A stretch of 10,863 nt of DNA from Alphaproteobacteria bacterium (GTDB lineage Bacteria > Myxococcota_A > UBA796 > SXON01). The DNA is taken from assembly GCA_040376255.1 (NCBI GenBank), contig JBEIQZ010000161.1:1-10863 (forward strand). The letters are read 5' to 3'. Positions 5,148-5,504 of this stretch are shown in pieces. A program made the translations under genes and the position numbers. Under the pieces are notes generated by a model that was not told the DNA's origin, searched no databases, and was given only the letters and a program-made list of their open reading frames with translations. The stretch's first letter is position 1. Each line of letters starts with the position of its first letter.

Positions 5148-5504
5148 GTGGTCGCAGGTTCACTGGCGCTCTTCGGGATGGCGATCTGCGCGATGCTCGG
5201 GTTCGGGCTGATCATCGCCGTGCTGCTGTTCTCCATCACCCGCAGCAGACGGCAGAACAGCGCGGACGGCGGGTATGACGGCGGGTATGACGGCAGTGGA
5301 TCTGACGCCTCCGTTGGATATATCGGGCACCACGGCGGGCATCACGGACACCACGGGCATCACAACCACGATGGCGGACATGGCTGGGGCGGCCACCACG
5401 GCCATGATGGCGGACATGGCGGCGACGGCGACAGCGGGGGCGGCGACGGCGGGGGCGGCGATGGCGGGGGCGGGGGCGACGGCGGCGGCGGCGGCGGGGA
5501 CTGA
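5148..5504 (+). CDS. Small single-pass membrane protein with a His-rich then Gly/Asp-rich low-complexity tail (putative metal-binding peptide)
   Basis: The start is GTG at 5148, preceded by GGAG 5 nt upstream (gccgccGGAGcaggcGTG). Residues about 5-30 (LALFGMAICAMLGFGLIIAVLLFSI) are hydrophobic, followed by the basic stretch TRSRRQNS, which indicates a signal anchor. Then come GGYDGGYDG, the tract HHGGHHGHHGHHNHDGGHGWGGHHGHDGGHGG, and (DGGGG)n. GC3 is high in the hydrophobic part. Confidence 0.6.
   Translation: MVAGSLALFGMAICAMLGFGLIIAVLLFSITRSRRQNSADGGYDGGYDGSGSDASVGYIGHHGGHHGHHGHHNHDGGHGWGGHHGHDGGHGGDGDSGGGDGGGGDGGGGGDGGGGGGD
5405..5500. repeat. Imperfect about 15-bp tandem repeats (ggcgggggcggcgac-like) encoding the Gly/Asp tail. 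A 12-bp direct repeat, ggcgggtatgac x2, lies at 5268-5291.
   Basis: Seen directly in the sequence. The coding triplet repeats are slippage-prone. Confidence 0.7.

Follow-up and report, generated by a model that had tools for sequence, protein, structure and literature searches.

The window, that is, the whole stretch of 10,863 nucleotides analysed here, has a G+C content of about 71% and carries genes for MVP-like, cNMP-binding and TrmB-like proteins, an aminotransferase and an E1 dehydrogenase component, among others. The open reading frame (ORF) under study, hereafter the target (5148..5504, forward strand), sits in the gap between the TrmB-like methyltransferase gene (3958..4632, reverse strand) and the class-III aminotransferase gene (5672..6844, reverse strand). 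It begins with GTG, encodes 118 amino acids followed by a TGA stop, and its product is predicted to be a small bitopic membrane protein. A Shine-Dalgarno sequence GGAG, read from the sequence at 5139..5142 of the same strand, is placed 5 nt 5' of the GTG and is the same in L031, a related contig described below. The earlier note had reported a 118-aa ORF with a GTG start and a good Shine-Dalgarno sequence; this description stands, and the translation is exactly as quoted there. An alternative in-frame ATG at 5178 (codon 11) has no Shine-Dalgarno sequence, and starting there would bring the helix closer to the length usual among family members.

The translation of 5148..5504 reads MVAGSLALFGMAICAMLGFGLIIAVLLFSIT-RSRR-QNSADGGYDGGYDGSGSDASVGYIG-HHGGHHGHHGHHNHDGGHGWGGHHGHDGGHGG-DGDSGGGDGGGGDGGGGGDGGGGGGD. 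All of its segments are encoded on the forward strand. Residues 1-31 (5148..5240, GC3 0.886) correspond to a hydrophobic transmembrane helix, predicted from hydropathy and by AlphaFold. They are followed by the basic patch RSRR (residues 32-35, 5241..5252), which would fix the topology by the positive-inside rule, and by a Gly/Tyr/Asp/Ser linker (residues 36-59, 5253..5324; DGGYDGGYDG...VGYIG), which is hypervariable and contains a perfect 12-bp repeat. The His block GHHGGHHGHHGHHNHDGGHGWGGHHGHDGGHGG (residues 60-92, 5325..5423) is a candidate divalent-metal-binding segment: its 14 His fall within residues 61-90, making up 47% of those 30 residues, and are often spaced as HH-G-HH or H-x-H. The protein ends with the acidic Gly tail DGDSGGGDGGGGDGGGGGDGGGGGGD (residues 93-118, 5424..5501), encoded by an imperfect 15-bp repeat and carrying the hallmark C-terminus of the family; its motif GDSGGGD(S/G)GGGDGGGGGD is common to the family members P0001 and P0003. 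Gly makes up 47% of the target's tail, His 16% and Asp 14%; Cys is absent. A single helix followed by a low-complexity His- and Gly/Asp-rich tail, as previously proposed, is what the translation contains.

Two smaller ORFs precede the target on the forward strand. The first one, of 88 aa (4631..4897, GC3 0.865), has its annotated frame as the best in codon usage and gave no match in Pfam and NCBIfam searches. By searching with it we reached L031, a 2.9-kb contig whose called genes include one for a 94%-identical protein, P0248; pN/pS between the two copies is 0.33. It is possibly co-transcribed with the target. The second one, a Cys-rich ORF of 42 aa (4992..5120, GC3 0.837), is in the target's frame, and its stop lies 27 nt before the target GTG. 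It is identical in L031, hence uninformative on selection, a family search with it gave no match, and its being a gene is uncertain. We rejected the possibility that this ORF and the target are one gene split by a stop, as the TAA and the Shine-Dalgarno sequence are conserved in L031 and nearly all family members begin at the helix.

On the other side, the spacer between the convergent target and aminotransferase genes contains GC-rich hairpins (5560..5672, assigned to neither strand; -58 kcal/mol, z = -1.8), weak evidence for a possible bidirectional terminator. L031 has a different, stronger 11-bp hairpin right after the stop codon of the target ortholog (z = -2.6). A scan of 4500..5900 for consensus sigma-70 promoters and intrinsic terminators found none. 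An RNA-gene explanation was dropped, since an Rfam search of the whole window gave no match.

The comparison with L031 bears on whether the target is a gene. The contig is collinear with positions 2633..5578 of the window at 95.9% DNA identity and contains, in synteny, a 118-aa ortholog of the target, independently called by a gene caller. Codons 1-34 are identical in both, and the helix DNA (residues 1-31) is conserved at 100%. The ORF alignment has two indels of 6 bp each, one placed in the linker and the other, an in-frame deletion in L031 relative to the target, in the Gly/Asp repeat; outside the ORF, about 2.6 kb of alignment contains a single further indel, of 1 bp and intergenic. In the His block (residues 60-92) all seven substitutions are third-position and synonymous (Sd 7, Nd 0), leaving the protein identical, and in the five other frames the same changes are non-synonymous in four and mixed in the fifth. 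With a simple binomial that takes synonymous sites at about 21% and ignores transition bias, seven out of seven would arise by chance with a probability of about 2e-5. The single substitution in the GD tail is synonymous too. The whole-ORF pN/pS is 0.23 versus 0.31-0.35 in neighbouring genes, and by this comparison the His block is the most strongly constrained of the target's variable segments.

Codon usage gives a more mixed picture. The GC3 of the target, 0.80, is below that of the confident neighbour genes (0.88-0.94). In a codon-usage log-likelihood trained on the confident genes of the window, the annotated frame comes out best of the six over the whole ORF (+0.267), over the transmembrane part and over the GD tail; inside the His block alone the score is ambiguous and slightly favours other frames. 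Both features, taken with the lack of a consensus promoter or terminator, of a curated family match and of an exact copy in the protein collection, would suit a spurious, GC-rich and low-complexity open frame lying between real genes. This reading is extremely improbable and already largely refuted: the in-frame 6-bp indels, the synonymous changes in the His block (7/7) and GD tail (1/1) and the independently called ortholog all contradict it, as do the ideal spacing of the Shine-Dalgarno sequence, an ordered architecture common to more than 200 clusters, low-GC Bacillota included, and the absence of any resemblance to the family among 2,419 six-frame ORFs from GC-rich loci. The earlier note had allowed that the ORF would be suspect if relatives did not conserve it; an ortholog exists and is accompanied by signs of purifying selection. 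The substitution pattern thus indicates that the target is a genuine protein-coding gene under purifying selection.

Exact-sequence look-ups of the target (with GTG and ATG starts) and of the aminotransferase in the protein collection returned no copy. Two anchored scans were also made: one of genome contigs, based on the aminotransferase, gave 6 loci, none of which shares another window gene or a family ORF; the other, of metagenome contigs and based on TrmB, gave 18 loci at 26-57% identity, with no synteny and no family ORF. That these two scans found no positional orthologs beyond L031 we ascribe to poor sampling of the lineage.

The 15-bp and 12-bp coding repeats pointed out earlier are recovered by Tandem Repeats Finder: 12 bp in 2.5 copies at 5265..5294 (100% matches), 12 bp in 2 copies at 5324..5347, and 15 bp in 5.5 copies at 5418..5499 (80% matches). 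Both 6-bp in-frame indels that separate the target from L031 fall in tandem-repeat regions, in line with the accompanying claim that tail length is prone to slippage. Tail length would then change via in-frame slippage of the coding repeats.

Substitutions between the target and L031 are concentrated as well: 31 of the 32 in the ORF lie within residues 35-92, a region with a synonymous divergence (pS 0.34-0.58) far above that of its neighbours (0.02-0.09). The linker contains 24-25 substitutions in addition to its 6-bp in-frame indel (Sd 10.8, Nd 13.2), a density of 25 substitutions per 100 nt versus 0-4 in most of the alignment. This hot spot in linker and cassette looks like the trace of imported recombination tracts or of local hypermutability. 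Elsewhere in the same alignment, the 3' portion of the TrmB gene has a comparable patch of substitutions.

The target has many relatives. Searching 5.8 billion proteins with the single sequence gave 6 hits of about 100 aa with the same order of modules (best E = 9.4e-6), one of them a protein of Paenibacillus allorhizoplanae. An exhaustive HMMER profile search of 1.84 billion cluster representatives (50% identity) gave 208 proteins at E <= 1e-3, nearly all of 88-127 aa and aligned end to end. Among the 151 best profile hits listed, about 140 have the target's architecture; their median length is 103 aa, the helix starts at residue 4 (median) and the C-terminus is (G/S)GGGD-rich, most commonly ending in 'GD'. 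Members belong to at least five phyla (Bacillota, Actinomycetota, Alphaproteobacteria, Chloroflexota and Myxococcota), with Paenibacillus, Actinoplanes, Devosia, Bradyrhizobium, Anaerolineales and Polyangiaceae among the taxa; two Paenibacillus-like contigs carry P0001 and P0003 in synteny. A membrane-tethered version of such a peptide had been thought unusual, a view that does not survive the finding of this architecture in at least 208 clusters from several phyla. Members are annotated as 'hypothetical' or bear automatic 'YgcG' or 'RcnA' labels, triggered by Gly/His runs, and literature searches brought up no description of the TM-basic-His-GGGD architecture or of glycine tails of the YgcG type.

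The match of the target to this family carries a compositional bias correction of 65 bits, part of the similarity being low-complexity. A family HMM built from 77 members, with the target left out, scores the target at 28.4 bits (E 3.2e-7 among 2,419 ORFs). With the same model, the best of the 2,419 GC-rich six-frame ORFs reaches 11.7 bits, the reversed tail -27.2, and none of 2,000 composition-preserving shuffles attains the target's score. An HMM made from the six first hits places the target far above 1,500 shuffles. The target also shows the ordered modules of the family: an N-terminal helix, at least three K/R after it and a GGGD repeat ending in Asp, within a length of about 90-125 aa.

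Across 228 family-like proteins, 65% end in Asp. The number of His per protein spans 0 to 21 with a median of 5: 71 proteins have at least 8, and 44 have 0 or 1. In family tails His represents 7.2% of residues, an enrichment of about 3-fold. In 94 of 98 members the first His pair comes after a short hydrophobic or aromatic patch; in the target this patch is VGYIG. What stays constant among members is the helix with its basic patch and the Gly repeats terminated by Asp; the His cassette is variable and modular. Judged by these profile comparisons, the target is a member of a widespread uncharacterised family of proteins of about 100 aa, composed of a transmembrane helix, a basic patch, a linker with an aromatic patch, a His cassette and (S/G)GGGD repeats.

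Among curated models, the closest is PF25184. Out of 78 family members, 20 align over all 65 positions of the model, with E from 1e-2 down to 1.7e-8, and none of the relatives tested reaches its gathering threshold of 40 bits, the best listed being 30.7 bits; the target itself gives no match to PF25184 even at E <= 10. The target shares with PF25184 the N-terminal transmembrane helix, the basic patch, the Gly/Asp/Ser-rich C-terminus and the stand-alone gene. Unlike the 65-position model, the group of the target has about 100-118 aa, with an inserted linker and His-rich cassette. We read the target's family as a longer sister group of PF25184, matched below threshold. The literature on yxzE that we found covers only its sigma-W regulon membership, a BAGEL score and its lack of induction by Hg(II). 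In B. subtilis, yxzE belongs to the sigma-W envelope-stress regulon; it was not induced by Hg(II) and fell along with the sigma-W regulon. Its bacteriocin label is a BAGEL genome-mining score, with ABC transporter genes nearby.

We then turn to the place of the protein in the cell. The N-terminus of the target has no K/R before the helix, a stretch of about 20-30 hydrophobic residues, and RSRR directly after it; the best 19-residue window of the helix has a mean Kyte-Doolittle hydropathy of 2.69. The target and each of the 6 first hits lack K/R before the helix and have 3-7 of them in the next 15 residues; for the 151 best profile hits listed, the median count is 0 on the N-terminal side of the helix and 5 over the 18 residues that follow it. 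By the positive-inside rule, this pattern of 0 K/R before and 3-7 after the helix points to an uncleaved anchor in N-out/C-in orientation and to a cytoplasmic tail. The positive-inside rule alone thus predicts, and we consider it probable, that the tail of the target lies on the cytoplasmic face. AlphaFold2, run on the target with a 78-sequence alignment, models residues 2-33 as a helix at pLDDT 92-97 and the tail without secondary structure at pLDDT of about 50; the tail of about 87 residues is predicted to be intrinsically disordered.

It was asked earlier whether the hydrophobic segment is a retained anchor or a cleaved signal peptide, and its rule-based features look like those of a retained anchor: the Sec-type signal-peptide pattern is absent, there being no charged n-region and RSRR following the hydrophobic stretch. 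Were the segment instead a cleaved or translocating signal, the His/Gly/Asp peptide would be extracytoplasmic, as a periplasmic or secreted metal binder or a bacteriocin-like product. The sub-threshold matches of relatives to PF25184, named 'YxzE-like putative bacteriocin', lend some colour to this, as does the fact that BAGEL once flagged yxzE as a putative bacteriocin owing to nearby ABC transporter genes; that label, however, is a genome-mining score only, with no activity data behind it. In every member examined, the missing positive n-region and the 3-7 K/R right after the helix are the reverse of a Sec signal, and the hydrophobic stretch of about 20-30 residues has the length of a transmembrane segment, not of an h-region. 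Features of class II bacteriocins are missing too: the target has no leader-like n-region and no double-glycine (GG) leader motif, and neither a C39 peptidase nor an ABC exporter or immunity gene occurs in the window. We consider export very unlikely. Retention as a membrane anchor fits better, and we hold with high confidence that the target is, jointly, a real gene, a family member, membrane-anchored and disordered.

Gene neighbourhoods were compared in eight contexts: the window, two Paenibacillus-like contigs, and those of Polyangiaceae, Devosia, Bradyrhizobium, Actinoplanes and one metagenomic lineage. They have no neighbour in common, no conserved partner protein and no metal-uptake or maturation operon. 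The earlier note had suggested looking nearby for metal transporter genes or genes of hydrogenase or urease maturation; neither the window nor the sampled contexts of relatives contain urease, [NiFe]-hydrogenase maturation or Ni-transporter genes, and the sole finding of this kind is a bfd-bacterioferritin pair that adjoins the Bradyrhizobium member, itself almost devoid of His. In Polyangiaceae, 87 nt separate the member from an ECF-type sigma factor gene upstream of it. An anti-sigma role was rejected as a general explanation, as no anti-sigma domain is present and ECF adjacency is absent from the other contexts.

We now propose an explanation for the target as a whole. It would be a single-pass inner-membrane protein, with an uncleaved helix oriented N-out/C-in by RSRR and a disordered tail in the cytoplasm. 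On the inner side of the membrane, the His cassette would in this lineage chelate divalent transition metals (Ni, Zn, Co or Cu), acting as a local metal buffer or sink analogous to the His-rich loops of RcnA-, ZIP- and CDF-type proteins. The conserved acidic Gly C-terminus would carry the family-wide function, be it interaction with a partner or cation binding. Taken whole, with an anchored disordered protein, chelation by the His cassette and slippage, we regard this explanation as evenly poised between right and wrong. Its parts differ in strength. Metal binding by the target's His block is plausible from its composition and spacing. As the physiological role of the target, metal binding is a hypothesis only, which we put forward tentatively and at somewhat less than even confidence. 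Searches of Pfam, NCBIfam and the PDB with the target found no homology to a curated metal-binding family, the PDB search yielding a chance transmembrane match only. The 44 of 228 family-like proteins with 0 or 1 His imply that metal binding is not the family-wide function.

The strongest competitor keeps the anchor and gives the tail a role other than transition-metal chelation: a membrane-anchored, disordered, acidic Gly tail in which the His cassette is an optional, lineage-specific insert. Such a tail might act as an entropic spacer, a membrane-proximal scaffold, a Ca/Mg-binding polyanion or a carrier of short linear motifs, in the last case modulating a partner membrane protein during envelope stress. 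Many small membrane proteins modulate partner membrane proteins. Several observations point this way. What the family holds constant is the helix, the basic patch and the (S/G)GGGD repeat ending in Asp (65%), with His ranging from 0 to 21; the aromatic patch before the His block in 94/98 members suggests a linear motif; the distant relative yxzE is in the sigma-W regulon and the Polyangiaceae member is near an ECF-type sigma gene; and metal genes are absent from the sampled neighbourhoods. However, no other variable part is held as tightly by purifying selection in this lineage as the His block (Sd 7, Nd 0), which is not what a neutral insert would show; His is enriched about 3-fold over the family tails, and no partner is conserved in the sampled neighbourhoods. 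On balance we find a role of this kind rather unlikely for the target, and keep chelation by an anchored His cassette as the preferred reading. Further from the data, membrane-tethered disordered tails with a swappable His cassette could represent an unrecognised class with a wide spread among bacteria, the cassette serving to buffer or pass on transition metals at the inner membrane face, or to detect them within ECF-sigma envelope-stress responses, with a capacity tuned rapidly by slippage and by recombination of linker and cassette; this we offer as a speculation with a low chance of being correct.

The outcome of this analysis is a well-supported gene call and family assignment, not a mechanistic discovery. 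Small membrane proteins and low-complexity tails are routinely dismissed as annotation noise, notably in GC-rich genomes, and here purifying selection on such a protein is demonstrated. Its family, which no curated model covers, comprises more than 200 sequence clusters in at least five phyla. Should the His cassette chelate metals at the membrane, metal homeostasis would have a simple layer that has so far gone unnoticed; should it not, the conserved Asp-terminated Gly tail still indicates an interaction common to many bacteria.

Several known systems invite comparison. Membership of the RTX-like Ca-binding GGxGxD proteins was rejected by sequence inspection only: the tail is without the nonapeptide hydrophobic positions. 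The earlier note had likened the target to Hpn-like proteins and to the N-termini of HypB. The His composition supports the likeness, and homology to them was undetected in Pfam, NCBIfam and the PDB. Hpn and Hpn-like proteins, HypB N-termini and the SlyD tail are soluble and cytoplasmic, and a link to genes for urease or hydrogenase maturation is usual among them; Cys pairs are a further feature of Hpn. The target shares with these segments a dense His content, HH and H-x-H spacing and disorder, a resemblance that is compositional only. Unlike them, it is predicted to be membrane-anchored, has a tail free of Cys, and has no maturation genes nearby.

The His-rich loops of RcnA/NicO, ZIP and CDF transporters offer a closer functional analogy than Hpn, HypB or SlyD: like them, the tail of the target is predicted to be membrane-proximal, cytoplasmic, disordered and His-rich. 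One relative is automatically labelled 'RcnA', and relatives match NicO, PRK10019 and ZIP weakly by composition, in the His run only and far below threshold (E 0.08-0.2; one ZIP match at 0.0018). In contrast to these transporters, the target has a single transmembrane helix and no transport domain.

Structurally, the closer analogy is with the tails of YgcG/TPM and DUF2207 proteins. TPM-domain/YgcG (COG1512) and DUF2207 proteins have a C-terminal transmembrane segment, basic residues and a cytoplasmic poly-Gly tail. The target repeats this order, with its transmembrane helix followed by basic residues and a predicted cytoplasmic Gly-rich tail; some family members carry tails of the GGGGDFGGGGASG type, as in YgcG/TPM proteins, and several are annotated automatically at JGI as 'uncharacterized membrane protein YgcG'. 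The differences concern both ends of the protein. Whereas TPM and DUF2207 proteins possess an extracytoplasmic domain, the target has none and places its helix at the very N-terminus; and unlike the Gly/Ser/Phe...W endings of YgcG/TPM, its tail is punctuated, and terminated, by Asp.

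Between the window and L031, a 2.9-kb contig that is 95.9% identical to and collinear with window 2633..5578, most of the alignment differs by only 0-4 substitutions per 100 nt outside two sharply delimited patches. The first covers the 3' part of the TrmB-like gene (window 3933..4232; 35 substitutions in 300 nt), and the second the linker and His block of the 118-aa ORF at 5148..5504 (window 5233..5432; 31 substitutions in 200 nt). The pattern in the alignment suggests that both patches are mosaic recombination tracts or products of local hypermutation. Just past the stop codon of the 118-aa ORF, sequence has been replaced between the two strains (window 5533..5578, L031 2900..2945): L031 carries there a GC-rich hairpin with a perfect stem of 11 bp (z = -2.6), and no equivalent is present at window 5533..5578 (z = +0.4). 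Other GC-rich hairpins lie at window 5600..5660.

Two small ORFs precede the 118-aa ORF on the same (+) strand. The 88-aa ORF at 4631..4897, Trp/Gly/Pro-rich and of unknown function, is divergent from the start of the TrmB gene. Its relatives in a collection of 5.8 billion proteins form one cluster only (P0248, the L031 protein, 94% identity, 4 member sequences); with a pN/pS of 0.33 relative to L031, the ORF is likely to be a genuine gene specific to this lineage. The 42-aa Cys-rich ORF, which contains CPQVYFCDDRVPRCRDNLC and lies at 4992..5120 with a possible in-frame extension back to 4923, shares the reading frame of the 118-aa ORF, and its TAA lies 27 nt ahead of the GTG. No family match was found for it, and as it is 100% identical in L031, selection on it cannot be judged.

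The remaining large ORFs of the window discussed here are all on the minus strand. By its Pfam major-vault-protein domains (MVP_shoulder, 3e-30; Vault_3, 5.7e-8), the 823-aa ORF at 61..2532 is identified as a bacterial MVP-like protein; a weak SPFH/Band_7 match is also present. The gene next to it (2557..3909) has a 450-aa product containing two cNMP-binding domains. At the other end, a 474-aa ORF with only a weak Acyl_transf_1 match (6868..8292), as listed mechanically, shares about 350 nt with the 3' end of a 781-aa fused E1 dehydrogenase/transketolase-like ORF (7944..10289); translation of the 474-aa gene probably begins downstream of the listed start.

Elsewhere, members of the protein family sharing the module order of the 118-aa ORF have varied neighbours. 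On the Bradyrhizobium manausense contig (L032 4001..5406), an almost His-free member is followed directly downstream, on the same strand, by bfd (Fer2_BFD) and bacterioferritin genes. In the Actinoplanes context an ECF sigma gene is located about 3.5 kb from the family member. Among the contexts sampled, a member adjoining such a gene was seen in L009 only, a Polyangiaceae MAG contig in which the member (5001..5324) lies 87 nt 3' of the same-strand gene (3964..4914) for a 316-aa sigma factor of the ECF type. This arrangement recalls the sigma-W control of yxzE in B. subtilis.
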